Positions 4,902-61,289 of a stretch of 64,000 nt of DNA are shown in pieces (the first letter of the stretch is position 1; each line of letters begins with the position of its first letter). Both the position numbers and the translations under genes were made by a program. The notes under the pieces are model-generated. The model was not told the DNA's origin, ran no database searches, and saw only the letters and a program-made list of their open reading frames with translations. Origin of the DNA: a plasmid; the NCBI RefSeq assembly GCF_053078305.1, contig NZ_CP166875.1, one strand, 5' to 3'.

Positions 4902-4964
4902 CCCTCTTTTGTCCATCATCCCGGCGTATCACAACGCCCTCATATTTAATCCCCGGAGAACGAC

Positions 4965-7900
4965 ATGAAGTCCAGATATCGTACCTGGCTTGCTGTCCCG
5001 CCTGAGGAGACAGAAGCCGTAAAAAATGCAGTCCCCCCGTTAAATGGCCGCAAAGCTGTCGCATGGGATCCAGAAAAAAAACTCTGGTATGCCCGGGCGG
5101 GTACCGAACTTTCACTGCTGGAGCGCTGGTTACCCCGGCCGCAGGAACTGTCGATGGATGCCGGCGATCCGGTCACCGAATTTGCTCAGGTCCTGGAAAA
5201 CGCCGGACTGGTTATTCAGGGATTGCCACAGATGGATGGCGCCATACACAGAGTCGCCACCCGGGATGACAAAAAAGGGGCCAAAAGTGGCGCATACAAG
5301 GCCTATCTTGATGGGCGCCCCGCCGGCTGGTACCGCGACTACCGGAGCGCCGATGACAGTCCCACAAACTGGGTATTTTCCGGCGGAGAACAACACGATC
5401 CTCTGGCCAGACTGCATCTGCGGGCATTCGCTCAGCAACAGCGCGATGATAACGCACGTAAACTGCAGCAACAGTACAACAAACAGGCCCGGTATGCCCG
5501 CTCCTATATTAACCAGTTACCACAGGCAACAGAGCATGAATACCTGACCCGAAAAGGGATCCTTGCCGCACCGGGCGTCCGTCTGAATAACAAGAATGAA
5601 CTCGTCATCCCTTTCAGTAACAGCCGGGGAGAAATACGTTCATACCAGCGTATTCCTGTCACCGGCGGGAAGGATGCCCGCATTCTGAAAGACTCAGAGA
5701 AAACCGGTAACTGGTTCACCTTCGGAACCCCGGAAAATGGCCGTCCCCTGTTATTTGCGGAAGGTTACGCAACTGCAGCCTCCCTGCACGAAGCCACCGG
5801 CCTTCCGGTTCTGATGACAGTTGATGCCGGCAATATGATTGACGTGGCAGAAAATGCCCGCCAAATCTGGACTGACAGCCCCTTTGTCTTCTGTGCCGAC
5901 AACGACCATCAACGGAAAATTAACAAAGGTGTTTCAAGTGCCCAAAAAGCTGCCGCAAGCACGCATGGCGAAGTCATTATTCCGGCCTTTACGGAGGCGG
6001 AAAAAGCACAGGGACTGACCGATTTCAATGACCTGGACGCCAGCAGGGGACGAGACGCCTTTCAGCGAGCCATGAACGCACAGTTAGAATATATCGGTAT
6101 CCCCACGCCCAACAATGACACTACTGACCGCCGTGAAGCTATCGTGATCGGCAACCTGATATTCACACCGGTAAAAGATGAGAAGCCACAAGTGTACCCT
6201 GAAAACAGACAGAGCACAGCCCCTGAACCGGCAGTGTCGGAACAGAATCATCCTTATGACATCCCTGCAGAAGAGACAGACAATCAGGCATATGAAGATG
6301 ACTATGCAGCATATGCATCCCTGCAGTCGGTAACTGCAGGGACAGCCTCCCCGAATGAACCGCAGGTGAATGCTGTTTCTGCCATTGACAGCAACGCAAA
6401 GAATACCTCTGCCGCCACCACTGACGACCGAAATGTATTAGCACAAGAACCCAATGCTGACGCCACAGTTACGACCACGGCTCACGACACCGGCACAGCA
6501 GAAACAGATTCACCTTCTGAACCTGCAGAGATTCAGCCAGTGCAGCAGGCCAGTCCTGAACCATCGGCTAAAGATAAACCACAGGAGAACGTAGTGTCTG
6601 CTACTGATAATGACGCAGAGAACACCTCTTCCGCCACCACTGCCCTCCGGAGTTACGACACACCGGAAACATCCGTCTCCGACGCAACCGGGACACAGCA
6701 CACCGCCACAACGCAACCTGAAGAACCACAGCAGGTCTCCATGGGCAGCGCTGACGACTGGAGCGCATTTGCGGAAGACCTCAATGCTGATGCTCCGGGG
6801 AATGCCACTGTTCACAGCACCGACAACGCGGAGACAAAGACACTTTCTGAACCTGCCGGGATGCAGCCTGTTCAACAGGCAACCCCTGAACCAACGGAAG
6901 AAAATAAACCTCAGGAAGAGGGCGTTATGTCTGCCACTGATACAGGTGAAGAGAGTGCCGCTGCCGCTATCGATGACGACCTGGACACAGTTGCGGAAGA
7001 CCTCAATGCTGATGTTACTGTGATGACCACAGCTCACCACACCGATACAGCAGAAACAGCCTCACCTTCTGAACCTGCAGAAATTCAGCCCGTACAGCAG
7101 GCAACCCCTGAACCAACGGCAGAAGATAAACCGAAGGAAGAGCGTCCAGTGTCTGCCACTGAGACCAGCACAGCGAATGAAACAGCCCGCCCTGAAACAG
7201 CATCGCTTTTCAGCCGCCTGCGCCGTTTTCTGACCGGTGGAAAATCACGTACCGCCGAACCTCCCGTTATTCAGGAGAACAAGCTTACGGAGGCCGAAAC
7301 TGCGACAGAGGCCGCAGCACCACCGTCACCACCTGAAACCAGCCCGGAAGACACATCGTCAGCAGAACCGGACACGATTATCTTTGCGCCCCGCCGGCCC
7401 AACAGTCCGCAGCGGCACAACCTGGACGAGATTATTAAAAATCTTACATACGATGAGTTACCCGACAATACTGCGCTCTGCCGCGTCGACGGCGAACCGG
7501 CATTCCTGGATAAACTCAACCGTCTGGAAATGGTGGATGGTGCCAGCACTGATGACAAAAAGGTCCTGGCTGCCCTTGCTGTGGCCACCAACTTCTATGG
7601 CGGCGTTATCGAGCTGACCGGCAGTGATGCCTTTAAACAAAAAGCCATGCAGCTGATTGTCGAATATGACATCAAGGTTCGCATGAAACTCCCGGTCCAG
7701 AGGGCTGCGCTGGAAAAACTCCGCCAGGAGAAAGGGATGGCGCATGATGCCATCGTCACCCACAGACCCACGCCGGAACTCAACCGCCTGTCACCGGAAG
7801 AGACAACAATGGCACAACCGGCCCCCCCTGTGTCACCGAAAGCAGAAACAGAGCAAACTGCAGGCAGTACGGCTGAAACACCGCATCCGGAAGCGCCGGT

Positions 7901-8981
7901 CACGGCAAAAGCTGAAGCCCCCCGGGCCGGCACACCGGAACAACCAGCCGCCCCGTCATCGTCAGCAGGAAACGTCGCTGTCAGTGCACAGCCACAGCAA
8001 CCCGACACACCGGAGGAAGAGCCCCCCGGCAAACTCAGACCCGGTGAAAGTGTGACTGCCGTCCTGACAAACTACGGAGAAAAAGAGTATGCGCCCGGAA
8101 AAGGGCGCTGCTTTTTTGTGGAGCTCACCAACCGCAGTGGCAAACGGGAATACTGGGGAAACGGCCTGGAAGAACTGGTCAAAAACCACCAGAAAGGCAA
8201 CCCCGTCACACTGACGCTGCAGGCGAGAGAAACATTCCGGCTGTCCGGTGAAACACGGGATCGTATCCGTAATATCTGGGCCATGACTCCTGTCAGTAAC
8301 GGCATTACCGTCGATAATGACCATCCTCATGCTGGTCAGCATATCCTGGATTTTCCGATGGCAACATTCAGCCAGGTGATGTTACAGATGCAACAACACT
8401 GGCCACAGATAATGCAGGAAGTTCGCTCCCCCAAAAATCCTCCCAATAATCTGTACATTGGTGAAGACAGGCAACCTGCATCAGCACCTCAGGATCAATC
8501 AATGCGACTCCCCCTCGCTGGTAATGCCCCCAATGAACTGATACCAGCCATCGCCTCTGCCGATAAGGACAATCGTCAGTTGAATCTTCTGCTGGTCCAC
8601 AGCGCAGATGATCATCTGCAGGGCGTGGTCCGCCTGAACGGCACCCTTTACCCGGCACTGGCCACCCCGTCAGCTGACAACCGTCAGCTGGTCATCAATG
8701 CCCTGACGGATAACGGTCTGCAGTTTGCCGGTTACGGTGAAGCTGTTAACCATGATGAGAATAATCATCAGCGTCCGTCCCCACAAATAATGCAGTTTCA
8801 CCTGAAGCAACAGGACTCCCCGTTGTTTGCCGCCATCCACAAACCGGAAGAGCAACCGGACAAGCTTTTCCGCTCTCTGGGTTTTGAGCAGACCTGGAAA
8901 GAGTGGTCTGACAGCCAAAAGGCGGAGGACAGGCAGGAAAAAACTCTGCAACAGGCACAATCCCACAGCCCCGGCCGATGA
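4965..8981 (+). CDS. Sog-like conjugative DNA primase, multidomain (1338 aa)
   Basis: Toprim-like motifs (FAEGYATAAS ... FVFCADNDHQ) in the N-terminal third; SD GGAGA before ATG; central acidic repetitive region; located between traK-like and traL-like genes as sog is in IncI1. Confidence 0.65.
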   Translation: MKSRYRTWLAVPPEETEAVKNAVPPLNGRKAVAWDPEKKLWYARAGTELSLLERWLPRPQELSMDAGDPVTEFAQVLENAGLVIQGLPQMDGAIHRVATRDDKKGAKSGAYKAYLDGRPAGWYRDYRSADDSPTNWVFSGGEQHDPLARLHLRAFAQQQRDDNARKLQQQYNKQARYARSYINQLPQATEHEYLTRKGILAAPGVRLNNKNELVIPFSNSRGEIRSYQRIPVTGGKDARILKDSEKTGNWFTFGTPENGRPLLFAEGYATAASLHEATGLPVLMTVDAGNMIDVAENARQIWTDSPFVFCADNDHQRKINKGVSSAQKAAASTHGEVIIPAFTEAEKAQGLTDFNDLDASRGRDAFQRAMNAQLEYIGIPTPNNDTTDRREAIVIGNLIFTPVKDEKPQVYPENRQSTAPEPAVSEQNHPYDIPAEETDNQAYEDDYAAYASLQSVTAGTASPNEPQVNAVSAIDSNAKNTSAATTDDRNVLAQEPNADATVTTTAHDTGTAETDSPSEPAEIQPVQQASPEPSAKDKPQENVVSATDNDAENTSSATTALRSYDTPETSVSDATGTQHTATTQPEEPQQVSMGSADDWSAFAEDLNADAPGNATVHSTDNAETKTLSEPAGMQPVQQATPEPTEENKPQEEGVMSATDTGEESAAAAIDDDLDTVAEDLNADVTVMTTAHHTDTAETASPSEPAEIQPVQQATPEPTAEDKPKEERPVSATETSTANETARPETASLFSRLRRFLTGGKSRTAEPPVIQENKLTEAETATEAAAPPSPPETSPEDTSSAEPDTIIFAPRRPNSPQRHNLDEIIKNLTYDELPDNTALCRVDGEPAFLDKLNRLEMVDGASTDDKKVLAALAVATNFYGGVIELTGSDAFKQKAMQLIVEYDIKVRMKLPVQRAALEKLRQEKGMAHDAIVTHRPTPELNRLSPEETTMAQPAPPVSPKAETEQTAGSTAETPHPEAPVTAKAEAPRAGTPEQPAAPSSSAGNVAVSAQPQQPDTPEEEPPGKLRPGESVTAVLTNYGEKEYAPGKGRCFFVELTNRSGKREYWGNGLEELVKNHQKGNPVTLTLQARETFRLSGETRDRIRNIWAMTPVSNGITVDNDHPHAGQHILDFPMATFSQVMLQMQQHWPQIMQEVRSPKNPPNNLYIGEDRQPASAPQDQSMRLPLAGNAPNELIPAIASADKDNRQLNLLLVHSADDHLQGVVRLNGTLYPALATPSADNRQLVINALTDNGLQFAGYGEAVNHDENNHQRPSPQIMQFHLKQQDSPLFAAIHKPEEQPDKLFRSLGFEQTWKEWSDSQKAEDRQEKTLQQAQSHSPGR
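6440..7170 (+). repeat. three imperfect tandem coding repeats inside the primase gene
   Basis: Repeated blocks LNAD...AET..PSEPAEIQPVQQA(T/S)PEPT..(D/N)KPQEE..VSATD beginning near 6445, 6781 and 7002; nucleotide copies about 85-95% identical. Confidence 0.7.
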
Positions 8982-25264: not shown

Positions 25265-26848
25265 ATGTCTACCCGCAGCAATTTTCCAGCACGACATGGT
25301 ACTCCATGGAATACTGAAGAGTTACAGCGTCTTCTCGTATCCATAGCGGAGGGCGTCTCGCTAAAAAAACTTACTCAAACACATCAACGATCGTCCGGGG
25401 GAATACGTGGAGCAATCAAACGCCTGCTTCCTTCTGAGTTTCTTGAGTTCAACGATATAAACACGGTGAATGATCTCAGCAATTACTTCAACAAGATTCC
25501 TCGCCAAGAACACAATAGTATCATCAATAATTTAATATCATTGAGCACTGCAAAAACAATTGCTCATGATAAAGTTGAAATACAAAAGAATAGTTTTAAA
25601 CAAAATACCCCACTCCCCCTCTGCCAACCCAATACAGATTTTAAAGATTATATAGCCGATGAACATGATGTCATTATGCTAATTCATTCTGCTATCGAAA
25701 GTTTATCTAATAAACGACATCAATATATTCTTCTAATGCGACTCGGCACAGATGATTCACCTCATTCTCTGGCAGATATTGCCGTCAAATTAGGAATTTC
25801 CCGTGAAAGGGTAAGACAACTTCAGGAACGAGCCCTTGGCTTACTAGCTGCTAAATCTCGCTATGAAGGGACACCTGGAGCTTGCCTTAAAGCCCTTATT
25901 AACTCAATAGGTAATTCACCATATGATATAGCAGTATGGATTTATCGTATTGTTCATCGGGATTTCGTTACATCCTCTGACTTAGCCGCCAAATTCATTA
26001 TTTTTACCGCAGGCATTCCTAAAGCAAGACGAGATGAAATAAAAAGTTCGCTCTCATTAATATCACAATTACAAAAGCAGAGGTTACGTGAACGAAGAGC
26101 AGAATTAGCACACGCTCGCGCTCAGGAAAGAGCCCGAATCAAGAAAGAAAGAGTTGAGTTCATATTCAGTAAATGGCTAGACAATACACATTGGCCAAAA
26201 TATATCGCACCTCCTCCCCCCGTAGAACAGCTATGTTCACAGAGAGCGGTTAATGATACTGACATATCTGGATTCTTTTACTCTCAAAAATTAGGTCGTA
26301 CAGTCCAGTACGAATCAGGGCTTGAGTTTAAAATAATGAATCTATTAGAATGTTGCGATCAGGTTCTTTTCTATCAAGAACAACCATTTTCTATTCCATA
26401 TTGTTTTAAAAACAAATCAAAAAAATACTATCCAGATTTACTCATTGCGACAGTTGATGGTCGGTGCCTACTTATGGAAGTGAAGCCAACAGACCGAATG
26501 ACCTTGAGTCTCACGAGAATAAAAAGTAATGCAGGTCGCAAATGGGCACATACTCGAGGATGGGGATGGTTGGTCATTAGTGATAGGTTCTCGTTACGTC
26601 AGCTGGAAGAACATGCCATCTCAACAAACACATGGAAACTTATAGAGGCTGAACTGAAAACATCAAGGATTTTAGCATGGCGTGAAATGATGGAGTTACG
26701 TACACGATACGAGATTCATCGTTTAGATCTTATTGCATATATCATTCAGTCTGGTGCTGAAGTGGATAACTTTTATCGAATTACCCCGAAAATATCTAAT
26801 AATACATCTAACCAGAGACAACTAAATGAGAGCGACTGTCATAATTGA
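25265..26848 (+). CDS. fusion protein: sigma-70 region-4-like HTH and C-terminal TnsA-like PD-(D/E)xK endonuclease domain
   Basis: Strongly AT-rich 527-aa ORF; HTH segment SLADIAVKLGISRERVRQLQERALGLL; C-terminal YESGLEF...YYPDLLIATVDGRCLLMEVK resembles the TnsA/restriction-endonuclease fold. Confidence 0.5.
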   Translation: MSTRSNFPARHGTPWNTEELQRLLVSIAEGVSLKKLTQTHQRSSGGIRGAIKRLLPSEFLEFNDINTVNDLSNYFNKIPRQEHNSIINNLISLSTAKTIAHDKVEIQKNSFKQNTPLPLCQPNTDFKDYIADEHDVIMLIHSAIESLSNKRHQYILLMRLGTDDSPHSLADIAVKLGISRERVRQLQERALGLLAAKSRYEGTPGACLKALINSIGNSPYDIAVWIYRIVHRDFVTSSDLAAKFIIFTAGIPKARRDEIKSSLSLISQLQKQRLRERRAELAHARAQERARIKKERVEFIFSKWLDNTHWPKYIAPPPPVEQLCSQRAVNDTDISGFFYSQKLGRTVQYESGLEFKIMNLLECCDQVLFYQEQPFSIPYCFKNKSKKYYPDLLIATVDGRCLLMEVKPTDRMTLSLTRIKSNAGRKWAHTRGWGWLVISDRFSLRQLEEHAISTNTWKLIEAELKTSRILAWREMMELRTRYEIHRLDLIAYIIQSGAEVDNFYRITPKISNNTSNQRQLNESDCHN

Positions 26849-27467
26849 TGACGCACAGGACGGAAAAAATAATAGCTGCCGGACAGCAGCAACCAGCAGT
26901 CGTCCGGTAAAAAAGACAAACAAGGCGCATTGAGGTCAGCCTTCGCAACAATCCGGCGGCAGATTCTCTACCGCCGTGTTGCCCGTTAACGTTTAACTTC
27001 GTAGGCTAACGTTGCCACAAGCACCGTATTTCCCTGCTCGATACGAAATCCGCAAAGCGAATCCCTCACCATCCAGACAAAACACAGTATCGTCACACAG
27101 ACGACGATTAACATCATTAAAAACGTTCGTTGTGGCATCGCAGCCCCTCCATTGCCTTTCGGCCGTCATCGGGCTACTATAATGTTGTTGAGGCATTACA
27201 GTGGGCCCTGGGTTGATTGATAAAAAAATCGCCTGGGGCTTTCTGCTACATGCCGTCCACAAAACGCTTTCGGCATACAGCCTCAAGCGCCCGCCGCTAT
27301 TCTAATCGTTTTCCAGTCCGCCACAATCCTTTTCATGCCACCACGTATTTTGTGTCAGGGACAGAAATAAAGCCGGAAAGTGACTACGTGTGCACACATC
27401 TGTTTTCCGGGCTGCAGGCATCGTGTTATTTTCTGAAATGCAAAATAATAAAAAACAAGGACACATC

Positions 27468-30530: not shown

Positions 30531-30845
30531 CCGCTTCTCCATCAATGGAGAAAGAACACCGTGGTTTGCCCTTACATTGCCTGTCGCCACGTTTTCTATA
30601 GTGTCAGTTATAGACAGTTCTTCTCCGGCCAGAGCACCAAAACCAGCACCACCTGATGTTTTGGCCAGGACTTGCAACCTGTTCATCCCGGTGAACGATA
30701 TGCCGGAAAGAACGTGCCTCAAAGCTGACACACCGAGTATATACTTATACTGTGCTTGCAGAAATATTATTTCAGCCGTATTATTTCATAGTCAGTTATA
30801 GGCAGTTATCTTCCGGTCAGGGCTACCAACTTCGATCCGGAATCG

Positions 30846-30876
30846 CAAAAAAACCGGCCTCACCAGTCGGTTTTTT
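30846..30876 (+). terminator. A-tract / hairpin / T-tract terminator, possible 3' end of an antisense sRNA
   Basis: AAAAAAACCG-loop-CGGTTTTTTT; sits at the far end of the toxin leader. Confidence 0.4.
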
Positions 30877-31077
30877 TGCGTCTGTACCTCCTCCCCGGAC
30901 AGCAGTTCTCTCACTCCCGTTGAATATTTCCTGTTGAATTTTACGAAAATACGGCAAATGGGAGATATCGAATATATTTCCTTGGGTGTAGTCGGTAAAA
31001 ACCAGCTCATGTTTGACTCACAGAAACAGGCTCTGGAAGTACAGAAAGTAATCTGTCCGTAGATTATTAAAGGGCAG

Positions 31078-52033: not shown

Positions 52034-53560
52034 TCACTTTTTTCTCCGTCGTCTGCCACGCGCTCTGCTGCCTGTATTTTTTTCCCGGGATGCCGGCTCA
52101 CTCTGCAATGCCGGGGGAGGTACCTGTTTCAGGAGCTGGCGCAGCACACTGTTGAGGATCAGCGTCCGCCGAGCCCGTGTGGCAGCCACATAGAGCAGGT
52201 TGAGTTCATCCCGCAGTTTCTCTTCAAATTCCTGCACATTGTCCGTTCCCGGCTGCTCAAGCTCCTGAAAATCCTCATGCAGCCTCACTGTGTCCCATTC
52301 CAGGCCTTTGGCCCTGTGCACCGTGGTGACAGTCACGGCAGCAGCCTTTTCGTCACGGACCTCATATTTTCGCAGCGTGGCCACATGTTCCGGCAGCGGC
52401 GAAAACTTCTGAATGATAGCCACTGACTGCAGCATTTCCGCGTCCCGGCTTGCCTTTGCCGTCGCCTCATAGTCAGAGAACGACTCCCACGCAGCAAAGC
52501 GAGCCGGCTCCCGGATTTTTTCCGTCATTCCCACAGAAAACCACCACAGATCCAGCAGGCGGGCAACCGGCCAGGCATTCATACCGTTGATCCAGTATGT
52601 TTTCTGCTTCCTCCGGGCCGCGTGAAGCGCAGCACCAATCACGCCCATCACTGTCCGGCACAGCACCGCACAGTGAGGCATATTCCTCTCGGGTTTCAGC
52701 AACAGACGGTCATCACCGCCAAGCCCACAGACTTTTTTCGTCTCCCCGTCCAGAGCCAGCACAGCATTTGCCACATCTGCCACACAGGGACCGAAACGGA
52801 AACTGCCGGTAAGCCACAGCCTGTCTGCCGTGGCCAGAGAGGGGGTATTCAGCGCATCCACGGCACCCCGGAAGCGATAAATCTGCTGATGTGGATCACC
52901 CACCATCACCAGCGTTCCACGGTGGCGCAGGACCAGGTCGGAGATCACCGGACTGGCGTCCTGGGCTTCATCAAACAGGATTTCATCGTACTTTGCGGAC
53001 AGATCCGGCTGCGAAAGCTGGTACAGCTTCAGATACAGATCATGAACGACCGGAAAGTCATCACTGCGGTCGCACATTCTTTGCCAGAGACGCACGGCCA
53101 GCGGCAGCACCTCTGCTGCGCGCAGTGGCGGCCTGGCACGGACATGCACCTCAGACAACGTCGTGTCCGCACTGTTCATGAAAGCCTGTAGGGTTTCCCT
53201 GACGGCCGCAGCCAACGGCCACTGGCGCAGTGAAAGCGCCCCGGCGATATCAGTAATGCCCAGGGAAGGCACGAGACGGTGGGAGTAATGTCGTCCAAAT
53301 TCCGGCCACGCCAGCTGATGTGCAGTCCGGCAACAGACATTCACCGGGAAGCGTGCCTGAGCCTCCTCCCGGACAGACCGGTTGAATGCGATATAGAGCA
53401 TACGGCGTTCAGGCCGGGCCTGCGCATAAGCCACCAGTGTGGCTGTTTTGCCGGTGCCGGCAAAAGCCCTGACAACCAGTCGCTGTCCCTGCCAGTTAAT
53501 GACAGCCTGTTGTTCAGCGGTCGGAGCGTGACGGATTTTCCTGACCGGGTGCTGAGTCAT
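52034..53560 (-). CDS. UvrD/Rep-like superfamily-1 DNA helicase (about 508 aa)
   Basis: Walker A AGTGKTAT, motif II FDEAQD, C-terminal VTTVHRAKGLEWDTV; ATG overlaps the upstream stop (ATGA). Confidence 0.7.
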   Translation of the reverse strand: MTQHPVRKIRHAPTAEQQAVINWQGQRLVVRAFAGTGKTATLVAYAQARPERRMLYIAFNRSVREEAQARFPVNVCCRTAHQLAWPEFGRHYSHRLVPSLGITDIAGALSLRQWPLAAAVRETLQAFMNSADTTLSEVHVRARPPLRAAEVLPLAVRLWQRMCDRSDDFPVVHDLYLKLYQLSQPDLSAKYDEILFDEAQDASPVISDLVLRHRGTLVMVGDPHQQIYRFRGAVDALNTPSLATADRLWLTGSFRFGPCVADVANAVLALDGETKKVCGLGGDDRLLLKPERNMPHCAVLCRTVMGVIGAALHAARRKQKTYWINGMNAWPVARLLDLWWFSVGMTEKIREPARFAAWESFSDYEATAKASRDAEMLQSVAIIQKFSPLPEHVATLRKYEVRDEKAAAVTVTTVHRAKGLEWDTVRLHEDFQELEQPGTDNVQEFEEKLRDELNLLYVAATRARRTLILNSVLRQLLKQVPPPALQSEPASREKNTGSRARGRRRRKK

Positions 53561-54183
53561 TTTGCCGTTGCGTCCTCCCCGTCCGTCATCCCGGCCAGAG
53601 CGACCTGTTTTTTCTCCCACCGTCGGTCCCGGATGGCCAGCCAGCGTTGAGCATTTTTTGCCTCATCCTCAGAAACCAGCCCGGCAGGCTTACCGTCGAG
53701 GTCATAGCGGGTGGCACCGGTGACAGCGGTACGCAACAGATAGACACGGCGGGAGGTGATACAGGATACGGCACAGTCCCATTCATCCCGGGTGAGTCCG
53801 GCTTCAGGGTGCTCAGCCAGCCAGGCAGGAATATCGCGGGAGATACCGACCCTGAGAGGCAGAAAACCGCCGCCTTCAGCGCGAAGATGCGGGAAAATCG
53901 CCTTGACCTTTTCCATGCACTGGTCGGTGAACTCCCGTGTCCAGTGCTCTCTGAGGGGTCTGCGTGGTGGTCTTCCTTTCCTTTTTTTTCCGACGGCAGC
54001 AGGCGCAGGAGACGCATCCTGGATGGGGGCTGGCAGCTGCTCATCAGCAGCAGCCGGTGGTGCCCCCACTTCCGGTACAGGCGAAATGACAGTCTCTGTT
54101 TTATCGACGACAGGTGGTGGTGAAATAACGCGACGTTTTTTCACCACAATGACGGGCGTTTTCTTTTCCTGATTCCTGGCCAT
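53557..54183 (-). CDS. ProQ/FinO-domain RNA-binding protein (FinO-like)
   Basis: Basic/Pro-rich N-terminus; C-terminal domain aligns by eye with FinO (PLRVGISRDI ... GATRYDLDGKP ... EDEAKNAQRWL). Confidence 0.55.
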   Translation of the reverse strand: MARNQEKKTPVIVVKKRRVISPPPVVDKTETVISPVPEVGAPPAAADEQLPAPIQDASPAPAAVGKKRKGRPPRRPLREHWTREFTDQCMEKVKAIFPHLRAEGGGFLPLRVGISRDIPAWLAEHPEAGLTRDEWDCAVSCITSRRVYLLRTAVTGATRYDLDGKPAGLVSEDEAKNAQRWLAIRDRRWEKKQVALAGMTDGEDATAK

Positions 54184-55373: not shown

Positions 55374-58300
55374 ATGCAGAAGTACAAGAAAAGAATTAGT
55401 ATATTAACAAAAAGTGAAATAAATGAATTATATCAAGTCCCCTCTTTTAATCCTGTTGAAAGGGATGAGTTTTTTTCGCTGGATATCAGCCTTAAAAGAG
55501 AAATTGATAAAATAATAAATATAGAAAGCAGGGTGTATCTGATATTAATAACAGGGTATTTCAGATATAAACCTGTGATTCCTGAATTTACATTAAAAGA
55601 CGTAAAAAGGGATGTGAAATATATTATCCAGACATATTATAAAAACGAAAGTACTAATCTCAATTTAAACATACCTAAAAGTACAAAGTACCGCCTTGTT
55701 AAACGAATGCTTTCTACTCTAGGATTTGAACAACTCACCCCATCTATAAAAAATGAGTTAAGTGAACGTCTGAATGATGTTGCTACTATATGTATGGAAC
55801 CAAAATATATTTTTGATGAATTACTTGCTTTTTTAGGACAGCGGCGTATAGCTCTTCCTGGATACAGTACTGTCCAGAACCTCGTTTCAGATGCTTTAAA
55901 CTTTGAAAGGAAAAGGACAATTAATATTTTGTCAAAGAGAATTTATCCTGCCACTGCACAAAAGATTACATCCATCATCCATGATGATGGAATATTAAAT
56001 TCCATCAGGGGATATAATTATAGCACGAGAGACTTCTCAGCATCAGAAATAGAAAATGAATTAAGAACTCACAATGTGATAAGTAGTATTTACTATGAAA
56101 TAAAAGATATAATTAATTCATTAGGTATATCCCAGGGAAACATGGAGTACTATGCAACTATCGTAAAACACAGTACAACATTCAGACTTAAGCGACACCC
56201 TAAATGGCAAGGAATACTTTATTTGTGCTGCTACTTGTACTTCAGATACAGAGAGATAAATGATAAAATAATCACAGCCTTCAGATATTTAGTAAAAAAA
56301 CATAAAGACGCTTCAGTTTTGTTTGCAAAAGCTCGGGCAACAGAGGAAATAGATCTAATAAATAAAAAGCTTAAGTTTGCGAGTAAAATATTTAACTTCT
56401 TCGTTGATAGTAACATTGAAGACAGCATCCCTTTTGGATATGTTCGTGAAAAGGTTTTTTCACTTATATCGAAAGATGATATGCATCTTGTGAGTGAATT
56501 TTTTGACAAAAATAAAATCGATGTAATTGAATATCAATGGCAGTATATTGACAGCCATCACCTTAAGATCGCCAATTCAATCCGAAAGCTTTTTCTGGCT
56601 ATAGATATAGTATATGACAACGAGAAGTCTGTTATTGGCCAGCAAATTACTGCTGCCAAGGATGATCTCAGAGGAAAAGGAAAGCTGGATGCTAAGGATC
56701 TGAGGGTAATTCATCCATCCGAGAAAAATTACATTGTAAAAGAAGGAGAAATTAACACTCAACGATTCGAATTTCATATGTACAGCAGGGTATCTAACCA
56801 TCTGGAAAACGGTGTCTTTTATGCTGCGGAGAGTGAACAAAACAAGAGACTGGAAGATGATCTCATAGAACGAAGTTACTGGCATAAGAATAAATCGATT
56901 TTGATAGAGAAAACAGGCCTTGAACGACTTATCACACCAATAACGCAGACTCTTAATGAGCTGGAGAATACCTTTAGCGATAAACTGGCTCGTATAACCA
57001 TTGGAATAAACTCAGATGCTAATGAGTTTGTGAAAAAACAACCACACTCCAACAGATTACAGTGGAGTCTGGCCAGTAAAAAATGGAAGACCAGCATCGA
57101 TAATCCGATTTACAATCAGATAAAAAATATCGGAATAGTTGACGTAATGAAGTATGTAAACAATGAGACGAATTTTTTGTCTGTGTTTAATGCCATATCA
57201 TCCAGGAAAAATAATCTTGAAGCTGACTATAATGACCTTCTTGCCTGTATATTTGGTAATGGCGCAAATTATGGTGTTCACAGAATGGCATCTGCATCAG
57301 ACCGTAGTATTGGAATACTACGTGATGTGAATGACAAATTCATTCGTCCAGAAACAACAGGAATGGCCAACACAGTAATATCTGATGCAATTGCAAATCT
57401 TTCTGTATATAAATACTGGACGATAAATGAAGATTCTCCATTTGGAAGTGTTGATGGGCAGAAGCACACTTGCAGAATAAATACATTTAAAGCCCGTTAT
57501 TCTGCCAAGTATTTCAGAAAGGGGAAAGGGGTTTCTGCGATGACACTGGTATCTAATCATGTGCCATTATCAACTGTGGTAATTTCTCCAAATGAATATG
57601 AAGGTCATTTTGCATTTGACTTGTTATATAACAACACCAGTGAAATACAACCAAAGTCATTAGCGACTGACAATCATGGTATAAACAACGTTAATTTTGC
57701 GATTCTTGACATTTTTGGCTATCAGTTTTCACCACGTTATGCAAAATTCAAGAAAATATTTAATGAATTATTTGATGTTATACTGGAGAGTGATAAACTC
57801 ATTATAAAACTTAAAAAACAATTTAACTTTAAGCTCATTGAACATGAATGGGAAAACATCCAACATATTATTTGTTCTTTAAGCAGAAAAACAACCATTC
57901 AAAGTACGGTTGTTAAGAAGTTATCTAATACAAAGCGTAGCAACAAGACATTAGCAGCACTTCGGGAGTATGACCGAGTTATAAAATGCATATATGTCCT
58001 GGATTATGCTGACAATAAAACCTTAAGGCAATTTGTGCAACAAGCACTGAACAGAGGTGAAGCTTATCATCAACTAAGAAGAGCAATAGCATCAGTAAAT
58101 GGAAATCAATTTCGCGGTGGTAATGACTACCAAATAGATCAATGGAACGACTGTGCGAGGTTAATAGCTAATTGTGTAATCTATTATAATTCAGCAATAT
58201 TATCCAGGCTGGTCGAGAAATTTGAAAAAGAAAATAATAAAAAAGCGATAGATGTTCTGGCTAACTTATCCCCAGTAGCATGGAGACACATTCTCCTTGG

Positions 58301-58412
58301 AGGGAATTATTCTTTTGAAGATCAAGTTGCGATCACAAATTTGGACAGTCTTTTGGAGGGAGTAGACCCACTAAGTGATATCGGAGATATTGAGTCCGAA
58401 TATGACGGTTAA
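55374..58412 (+). CDS. tnpA: Tn3-family transposase TnpA (1012 aa)
   Basis: Size, N-terminal region and position inside the IR-bounded element. Confidence 0.8.
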   Translation: MQKYKKRISILTKSEINELYQVPSFNPVERDEFFSLDISLKREIDKIINIESRVYLILITGYFRYKPVIPEFTLKDVKRDVKYIIQTYYKNESTNLNLNIPKSTKYRLVKRMLSTLGFEQLTPSIKNELSERLNDVATICMEPKYIFDELLAFLGQRRIALPGYSTVQNLVSDALNFERKRTINILSKRIYPATAQKITSIIHDDGILNSIRGYNYSTRDFSASEIENELRTHNVISSIYYEIKDIINSLGISQGNMEYYATIVKHSTTFRLKRHPKWQGILYLCCYLYFRYREINDKIITAFRYLVKKHKDASVLFAKARATEEIDLINKKLKFASKIFNFFVDSNIEDSIPFGYVREKVFSLISKDDMHLVSEFFDKNKIDVIEYQWQYIDSHHLKIANSIRKLFLAIDIVYDNEKSVIGQQITAAKDDLRGKGKLDAKDLRVIHPSEKNYIVKEGEINTQRFEFHMYSRVSNHLENGVFYAAESEQNKRLEDDLIERSYWHKNKSILIEKTGLERLITPITQTLNELENTFSDKLARITIGINSDANEFVKKQPHSNRLQWSLASKKWKTSIDNPIYNQIKNIGIVDVMKYVNNETNFLSVFNAISSRKNNLEADYNDLLACIFGNGANYGVHRMASASDRSIGILRDVNDKFIRPETTGMANTVISDAIANLSVYKYWTINEDSPFGSVDGQKHTCRINTFKARYSAKYFRKGKGVSAMTLVSNHVPLSTVVISPNEYEGHFAFDLLYNNTSEIQPKSLATDNHGINNVNFAILDIFGYQFSPRYAKFKKIFNELFDVILESDKLIIKLKKQFNFKLIEHEWENIQHIICSLSRKTTIQSTVVKKLSNTKRSNKTLAALREYDRVIKCIYVLDYADNKTLRQFVQQALNRGEAYHQLRRAIASVNGNQFRGGNDYQIDQWNDCARLIANCVIYYNSAILSRLVEKFEKENNKKAIDVLANLSPVAWRHILLGGNYSFEDQVAITNLDSLLEGVDPLSDIGDIESEYDG

Positions 58413-60856: not shown

Positions 60857-61015
60857 CTACTTACCGGATTCGTAAGCCATGAAAGCCGCCACCTCCCTGT
60901 ATCCGTCTCTGTAACGAATCTCGCACAGCGATTTTCGTGTCAGATAAGTAAATATCAACAGTGTGAGACACACAATCAACACACACCAGACAAGAGAGCT
61001 GCGTGGTAGTTTCAT
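60857..61015 (-). CDS. hok: Hok/Gef-family type I toxin
   Basis: Encodes [52 protein letters not shown]. Confidence 0.8.
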
Positions 61016-61072
61016 GGCCTTCTTCTCCTTGCGCAAAGCGCGGTAAGAGGCTATCCTGATGTTGTCAGACAT
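60857..61072 (-). CDS. mok-like overlapping leader frame
   Basis: In-frame upstream extension ([19 protein letters not shown]-) of hok, as in hok/mok/sok loci. Confidence 0.4.
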
Positions 61073-61289
61073 ATGGGATGCCTCGTGGGTTAATGAAAAA
61101 TTAACTACGGGGCTATCTTCTTTCTGCCACACAACACGGTAACAAACCACCTTCACGTCATGAGGCAGAAAGCCTCAAGCGCCGGGCACATCATAGCCCA
61201 TATACCTGCACGCTGACCACACTCACTTTTCCTGAAAATAACCCGCTCATTCAGGCTGTTTACGGGTAATCTGTGTGATTGTTGCCGCA

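Follow-up and report, generated by a model that had tools for sequence, protein, structure and literature searches.

An IncK2/Z plasmid sog gene with an acidic linker built of tandem units that differ in number among close relatives

We analysed a 64,000-nucleotide (nt) stretch of a plasmid (NCBI RefSeq assembly GCF_053078305.1, contig NZ_CP166875.1), hereafter the window, and within it the gene at positions 4965-8981 of the plus strand. Its sequence identifies this gene as the orthologue of sog on an IncK2/Z plasmid, one of the conjugative I-complex plasmids (IncI1, B/O, K, Z) in which sog is a core transfer gene. The number of tandem units in its acidic linker is genuinely polymorphic, from one to four, among near-identical plasmids. 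We consider it highly probable that the whole is best explained as the sog gene of IncK2/Z, coding for a transferred primase with an acidic linker of variable length. A first-pass annotation of the window had proposed a Sog-like primase with three internal acidic repeats, and both proposals held. The first is supported by synteny with sog of plasmid R64, collinear homology to its long product SogL, Pfam and PHROG primase matches, an EGYATA motif and a DnaG-like Toprim fold; for the second, three units (A, B and C) were confirmed, together with a partial fourth (Table 1).

The gene is a single open reading frame (ORF) in the ORF list, with an ATG start and a product of 1338 amino acids (aa). 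In a megablast search of 72,556 plasmids, more than 20 Escherichia coli plasmids were found to carry a full-length, 100% identical gene, annotated as 'DNA primase' or 'LPD7 domain-containing protein'. One of these carriers, NZ_AP017613.1, is typed as IncK2/Z, MOBP and MPF_I (mating pair formation type I), and has the order traJ, traK (icmT), sog, a traL-like gene, DotI/IcmL (traM), DotH/IcmK (traN) and traO. The genes flanking sog in R64 (NC_005014) follow the same order, save that nuc, encoding a phospholipase-D nuclease, lies between traK and sog. Flanked by traK (icmT) and traL within the MPF_I transfer operon, the gene has the location of a Sog family member, and because the traK-sog-traL order matches both R64 and IncK2/Z plasmids, we take the window to be part of the transfer region of an I-complex plasmid. 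Other ORFs of the window match DotA/TraY, TrbC, a MOBP relaxase and DotM/IcmP. In a global alignment, the protein was collinear with R64 SogL (1255 aa) over its full length, with identities of 75% across aa 1-398, 69% in the LPD7 region and 64% across aa 1023-1338, falling to 58% in the second linker and 29% in the first. The gap between traK and sog measures 63 nt (window 4902-4964) and corresponds to the gap occupied by nuc in R64; two other IncK2/Z plasmids, CP088704.1 and NZ_CP033633.1, have a 582-nt hypothetical ORF between traK and sog.

The folded parts of the protein are those expected of a Sog primase. Within the catalytic region, Pfam places a Toprim_3 domain at aa 264-364 (E 3.1e-5), and the EGYATA motif occupies aa 266-271 (nt 5760-5777); the invariant columns of the family alignment (E27, G28, Y29, A30, T31, A32, D75, D114 and D117, in fragment numbering) show that the EGYATA motif and the Toprim acidic residues are both present in the N-terminal primase, as in Sog family members. 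We built two AlphaFold models, the first of aa 240-930 with a 23-row family alignment, and the second of aa 830-1338. In the first, the predicted local distance difference test score (pLDDT) was 89-96 over aa 250-379 and 85-91 over aa 820-919. Its top Foldseek matches were the DnaG catalytic cores 3b39 and 1dde (probability 0.98-0.99), followed by the Toprim domain of RNase M5 and T7 gp4, with weak E-values because the model is mostly disordered. The LPD7 domain is joined to the enzymatic primase domain in one polypeptide, as in LPD7 polyvalent proteins.

Both beta-rich modules of the C-terminal region were modelled confidently in the second model. Their nearest Foldseek neighbours are tandem DNA binders of the oligonucleotide/oligosaccharide-binding (OB) fold, none with an E-value of 1e-3 or below (POT1, RPA70, HIN domains, bacterial single-stranded DNA-binding proteins (SSBs) and PrgE of pCF10, all weak), and on this modelling the region is possibly OB-like. 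An NCBIfam scan of the whole protein matched no family, a PDB sequence search with the N- and C-terminal parts gave no significant match, and neither the linker nor the C-terminal part had a PHROGs match.

Between the primase and LPD7 lies linker 1, an acidic segment of approximately 420 aa that houses the repeats. Taken over aa 396-830, it has a net charge of -58 and an isoelectric point (pI) of 4.07, and falls on the disordered side of the charge-hydropathy boundary. Disorder prediction, suggested as a check by the first-pass annotation, agreed by both routes, with composition placing the linker among disordered sequences and the AlphaFold pLDDT falling to about 35-45 over roughly aa 399-814, between the confidently modelled domains. 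The first-pass idea that the block may be an extended linker of a transported protein is consistent with this prediction. Tandem Repeats Finder (TRF) reported a period of 222 (1.9 copies, score 534) at 6752-7162, and a family of direct repeats had 209-nt copies at 6378, 6708 and 6930, spaced by 330 and 222 nt and 64-76% identical. At the protein level, units A, B and C are 56-62% identical in pairwise comparisons. The best 20-aa self-match within the linker scored 95, against a mean of 36.5 (standard deviation 3.5, maximum 50) in 200 composition-preserving residue shuffles, and the repeats are therefore far above chance.

The unit starts first given, near 6445, 6781 and 7002, mark the same repeats in another register, in which the second and third are displaced by 5-6 nt (6445, 6775 and 6997 being in register). 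The block itself had been put at about 240 residues, too short an estimate, as we find approximately 280 aa with a net charge of -45. Each unit retains, across diverged alleles, a core SEPAEIQPVQQATPEP and a second core AEDLNAD. Downstream of the units, the basic amphipathic motif LFSRLRRFLTGGKSR is kept in all aligned relatives, with SFLDKARGFFTRKK as its counterpart in R64. AlphaFold predicts a short helix at aa 749-756 within it, and the motif could have a docking or membrane-binding role. An opposite-strand ORF of 176 aa within the repeats (6510-7040), like other overlapping ORFs, was set aside as a presumed by-product of repeat composition, with no further evidence sought.

We investigated the distribution of these units among close relatives, recovered as 120 clusters (1154-1463 aa) from a search of 5.8 billion proteins. 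Units were counted with a hidden Markov model (HMM) of the repeat unit in 121 sequences, comprising the 120 clusters and the window protein. Three units were found in 73 sequences and two in 43, with four units in 4 and a single unit in 1; the same HMM gave no match to R64 SogL. Segment lengths measured between conserved-motif anchors placed this variation in linker 1, which ranges from 222 to 531 aa and is the sole segment to vary widely. The N-terminal 398 aa are constant save for a few gene calls truncated at the 5' end, the LPD7 segment is constant at 130 aa (70 of 70 relatives), and the C-terminal 317 aa are invariant. Linker 2 differs in length only in rare alleles, such as P0002 (1296 aa), with 45 aa in place of 87, and P0114 and P0115 have approximately 99 aa extra downstream of LPD7. 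Closed IncK2/Z plasmids likewise have sog genes of 3810, 3846, 4017, 4062 and 4098 nt. In the literature on IncK and I-complex plasmids we found no account of the B/O/K/Z repeat linker or of its unit-number polymorphism, although this was a limited search and is not proof of novelty.

The suggestion that repeat copy number can change was thus borne out by relatives with one to four units, and also by in-register deletions of 219, 222 and 552 nt in alleles otherwise close to the window gene. Allele L006 has no mismatches to the window gene over 3798 nt and lacks 219 nt (window 6412-6630), with 12 nt of exact homology at the junction. L005 has 3 mismatches and a 222-nt deletion (6876-7097) with 22 nt of homology, and L007 has a 552-nt deletion (6495-7046) with 13 nt. 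Across the 3 kb upstream of the gene, L005 and L006 depart from the window at only 4 and 1 nt respectively, placing both alleles on the window's plasmid backbone. More widely, the alignment of relatives contains clean in-register joins linking different pairs of units, with a fourth type of join, DDWSAF|AEDLNAD, in P0058 and P0114. In E. coli, efficient RecA-dependent exchange usually needs longer homologies than these 12-22 nt, so that replication slippage or template switching, rather than RecA recombination, would be the probable route of unit loss and gain. As a separate observation, L007 (L007:3001-6465) is a mosaic that has 10 mismatches with the window sequence before nt 7364 and approximately 80 across nt 7364-8426, a pattern that points to recombination between sog lineages inside the gene.

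Differences of this kind could in principle be artefacts of short-read assembly that conceal an invariant gene. L005, L006 and L007 all come from Logan/ENA assemblies, and their exact junctions were absent from the closed plasmids of PLSDB, which gave only two-piece or lower-identity matches. We nevertheless regard an artefact as extremely unlikely, because the units are only 64-76% identical in DNA and assembler k-mers exceed the junction homologies in length (we judge 12-22 nt to be shorter than any such k-mer, the L005 contig being named k141). The L006 allele is moreover present on 9 contigs, and its protein also in NCBI records, and the five sog lengths listed above are from closed plasmids.

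A second possibility is that the units are functional modules, either acidic DNA mimics or motifs binding the coupling complex, SSB or recipient factors, and that their number is adaptive, tuning activity or host range. The conserved cores in every unit would fit such a role, as would the strongly acidic linker of all family members and the fact that two-unit and three-unit alleles are both common. Every insertion or deletion is also in frame and of whole units, yet this would follow automatically from in-register slippage, as the period is divisible by three. R64 and other family members have functional Sog proteins without any such units (PMC6112013), the unit cores are unconserved beyond the B/O/K/Z lineage, and AlphaFold predicts no structure for the units, so that we find functional modules unlikely. 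Also unlikely is the idea of a tunable module, in which Sog behaviour would depend on unit number, and slippage, possibly in the course of conjugative single-strand replication, would alter that number appreciably often. If this were true, the array might be a DNA-mimicking decoy, an autoinhibitor of the C-terminal DNA-binding region or a site where the Dot/Icm-type coupling complex docks multivalently, and a contingency-like locus within a transfer gene would let plasmid lineages vary in transfer efficiency or host range.

We prefer to see linker 1 as a flexible acidic spacer or tether that would tolerate changes in length and contain no folded functional module. In the B/O/K/Z lineage it changes by in-register loss or gain of whole units of 73-110 aa at microhomologies of 12-22 nt. 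The Sog polypeptides of ColIb-P9 are reported to run at 210 and 160 kDa on gels, far above their sequence-calculated masses, a slow migration as expected from a long acidic disordered segment.

Sog of R64 is made in two forms that both reach the recipient, SogL (1255 aa) and SogS (844 aa), the latter by internal reinitiation (PMC6112013). These lengths place the SogS start at Met412, where the R64 DNA reads GAGGAAAAAACC-ATG. The equivalent codon in the window gene is the GTG of Val410, the candidate start from which a SogS-type product would probably begin. Among the 120 related clusters, the column holds Met in 45 and Val in 75, and all sampled DNAs have ATG or GTG. In the wider family alignment, 13 of the 22 other rows have Met and 3 have Val; 9 of the 13 Met rows are not close relatives, and the Met there typically follows Glu-rich codons. 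The recurrence of Met in this column, and of ATG or GTG in close relatives, speaks for conservation of an internal start where the domains meet. The first-pass annotation had raised an internal in-frame restart as known for sog, and this stands as regards a start codon at the R64 SogS position; the pairing with the anti-Shine-Dalgarno sequence is weak (-2.7 kcal/mol, vs -6.1 in R64).

Other in-frame codons pair better. GTG544 (nt 6594, -7.4 kcal/mol), ATG655 (nt 6927, -6.3) and GTG729 (nt 7149, -5.7) head units B, C and the partial fourth, raising the possibility that the repeats multiply internal starts, with a Shine-Dalgarno-like run and a GTG or ATG at each unit boundary yielding a ladder of nested short forms. 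However, three of four closed IncK2/Z alleles have no such site and the fourth has one at an unrelated position, and Glu-rich GAG/GAA codons generate Shine-Dalgarno-like runs by chance, as in R64, which has several, none of them known starts. We therefore think a ladder of this kind very unlikely, and the three sites are probably a side effect of the Glu-rich coding sequence.

By orthology with IncI1 Sog, the donor would make the protein and a Dot/Icm-like (MPF_I) type IV secretion system would export it into the recipient. There, the N-terminal Toprim/EGYATA primase may lay primers on the incoming single strand for complementary-strand synthesis. The C-terminal two-thirds, with LPD7 and the beta-rich region, would be the part required for conjugation itself. 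What is shown for this allele is its identity, its domains, the predicted disorder, the repeats and their copy-number polymorphism; export, priming, the spacer role and slippage are inferred. Sog is known to enter recipients for IncI1 plasmids only, and to have primase activity (dnaG suppression) for ColIb-P9 and R64 only, according to work cited in PMC6112013 and PMC7213743; SogL is also listed as a transferred Toprim primase (PMC5512222). In transposon sequencing (Tn-seq) of the IncI1 plasmid pESBL, a score of 1.00 ('required for transfer') was obtained for the SogS portion and one of 0.26 (non-essential) for the whole of SogL (PMC4288162, Table 2), which fits a dispensable primase part, and conjugation of the I-complex plasmid pMS7163B needs sogLS (PMC10286972).

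Several points weigh against this account of the gene. The recent-deletion junctions are known from draft or metagenome assemblies alone and, as described above, their exact sequences were not recovered among closed plasmids. The pairing at GTG 6192 is weak, and primase activity, export and the short form are ascribed to this protein by orthology with IncI1 Sog. The spacer role is drawn from the tolerance of length, and copy number might tune function after all.

Table 1. Features of the sog gene and its product (positions in the window; aa, amino acids of the product)
Feature	Position	Strand	Extent or description	Basis
Shine-Dalgarno-like GGAG	4955..4958	+	7 nt 5' of the sog (SogL-type) ATG	anti-Shine-Dalgarno duplex -6.6 kcal/mol
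sog coding sequence	4965..8981	+	146 kDa, pI 4.8	ORF list, plasmid identity, R64 SogL collinearity
DUF5710 N-terminal domain	4980..5135	+	aa 6-57	Pfam PF18974, E 1.1e-8
Primase catalytic region	5397..6092	+	aa 145-376	PHROG DNA primase phrog_2249, E 2.5e-56
Linker 1, acidic, predicted intrinsically disordered	6159..7418	+	aa 399-818	charge, pLDDT, length variation
GTG (Val410), candidate SogS-type start	6192..6194	+	929-aa product	aligned to R64 Met412
Repeat unit A	6360..6578	+	aa 466-538, 73 aa	repeat finder, unit alignment
Repeat unit B	6579..6908	+	aa 539-648, 110 aa, including a 37-aa insertion	repeat finder, unit alignment
Repeat unit C	6909..7130	+	aa 649-722, 74 aa	TRF, repeat finder, unit alignment
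Partial fourth unit	7131..7199	+	aa 723-~745	D2 family copy at 7148-7177; unit alignment
Basic amphipathic motif LFSRLRRFLTGGKSR within acidic linker	7203..7250	+	aa 747-762	alignment
LPD7 domain region	7419..7736	+	aa 819-924	Pfam PF18821 at aa 840-922, E 7e-11; pLDDT 80-93
Linker 2, disordered	7737..8030	+	aa 925-1022, Pro/Ala/Glu/Thr-rich	pLDDT ~30; composition
C-terminal beta-rich region	8031..8978	+	aa 1023-1338	modules aa 1023-1109 and aa 1127-1334

We additionally identified more distant members of the primase-LPD7 family. A scan with aa 830-1338 against 1.84 billion representatives yielded 210 relatives, approximately 50 of them full-length, with C-terminal parts about 26-60% identical. 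In the relatives with an EGYATA primase, the stretch between primase and LPD7 spans 139-758 aa and is negative throughout, with net charges of -14 to -64, and unrelated internal repeats occur in the linkers of several (for example P0125, P0169 and P0151). The recurrence of one order in these distant relatives indicates a family design in which the primase is followed by an acidic linker free in length and sequence, then by LPD7, a second linker and the C-terminal region. Judged from these sequences, the window's tandem units are one lineage's means of building the acidic linker.

Elsewhere in the window, scored with Rfam gathering thresholds, we identified sok antitoxin RNAs at 27136-27292 (minus strand, 124.7 bits) and 61013-61184 (minus strand, 87.2 bits), and an AgrB-like antisense RNA at 30792-30879 (plus strand, 47.7 bits), which probably represent type I toxin-antitoxin modules belonging to the plasmid backbone. 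An ORF of 527 aa downstream of traY/excA (25265-26848, plus strand) has weak NCBIfam matches, far under curated cut-offs, to a sigma-70 region-4-like helix-turn-helix at aa 131-199 and a TnsA-like endonuclease at aa 331-439, an unusual combination. Finally, an ORF of 528 aa (52034-53620, minus strand) with short-piece matches to UvrD/RecB-type helicases adjoins a Tn3-family transposase gene (55374-58412, plus strand, E 2.6e-181), and could be a helicase of the accessory region that is truncated or divergent.

The I-complex plasmids spread resistance of the extended-spectrum beta-lactamase (ESBL) type and of the AmpC type in E. coli, Salmonella and Shigella. The gene described here is already known, with many database copies and earlier study as sogLS, and it is a family member and no new system; the repeat findings leave the understanding of sog unchanged and are a detail of a known protein. 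What they add to the known picture is that the B/O/K/Z lineage has swapped the Sog linker for a tandem-repeat array, that whole units are gained or lost between otherwise identical plasmids, and that the primase-LPD7 family as a whole conserves an acidic disordered linker whose length is free. In practice, sog length is usable as a cheap lineage marker, the array is a trap for short-read assembly and for sog-based typing schemes, and the natural alleles of one to four units offer a ready series of linker-length variants for mechanistic work.

Among known systems, the TraC1 primase of the IncP plasmid RP4 is also of the EGYATA-type Toprim class, has long and short forms and is transferred to recipients, with an ArdC-N/DUF1738 domain and a metallopeptidase N-terminal to its C-terminal Toprim (PMC5512222, PMC7213743). 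TraC1 is exported by another type of secretion system, and the domain order is opposite, as Toprim is N-terminal in the window Sog. Pfam searches with aa 1-1200 and aa 740-1338 recovered DUF5710, Toprim and LPD7 only, with no ArdC-N/DUF1738 or metallopeptidase match, and a primase of the RP4 TraC1 type was ruled out on the absence of these domains together with the domain order.

The P4 alpha protein and the DnaG core have the Toprim catalytic fold in common with the window protein, which gives strong matches to phage primase profiles. Strack et al. in 1992 reportedly described the EGYATA motif as shared with P4 alpha. Compared with P4 alpha and DnaG, however, the window Sog has no helicase domain, zinc-binding domain match or DnaB-interaction domain, and its primase is instead fused with a disordered linker and with a C-terminus specific to conjugation.

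Closer in design are the distant primase-LPD7 proteins of MPF_I elements, with the same order of primase, acidic variable linker, LPD7 and C-terminal region, and in many members a Met at the boundary of primase and linker; their folded parts are far more divergent, with C-terminal parts 24-61% identical among the relatives aligned, and their linker repeats are lineage-specific or lacking. Pri of the IncM plasmid pCTX-M3 (1070 aa) is 23-30% identical to SogL and has a potential internal product of 689 aa (PMC6112013). The closest known counterparts are SogL and SogS encoded by R64 and ColIb-P9 (both IncI1), which share the locus after traK and before traL, the order of DUF5710, Toprim/EGYATA primase, acidic linker, LPD7, second linker and C-terminal region, and a start codon at the SogS initiator position. 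The window gene differs from R64 in lacking nuc between traK and sog, and in having at the internal start a GTG with weak Shine-Dalgarno pairing in place of an ATG with GAGGA. It differs most in linker 1, which is unrelated to that of R64 in sequence (29% identity), approximately 75 aa longer and built of tandem units.

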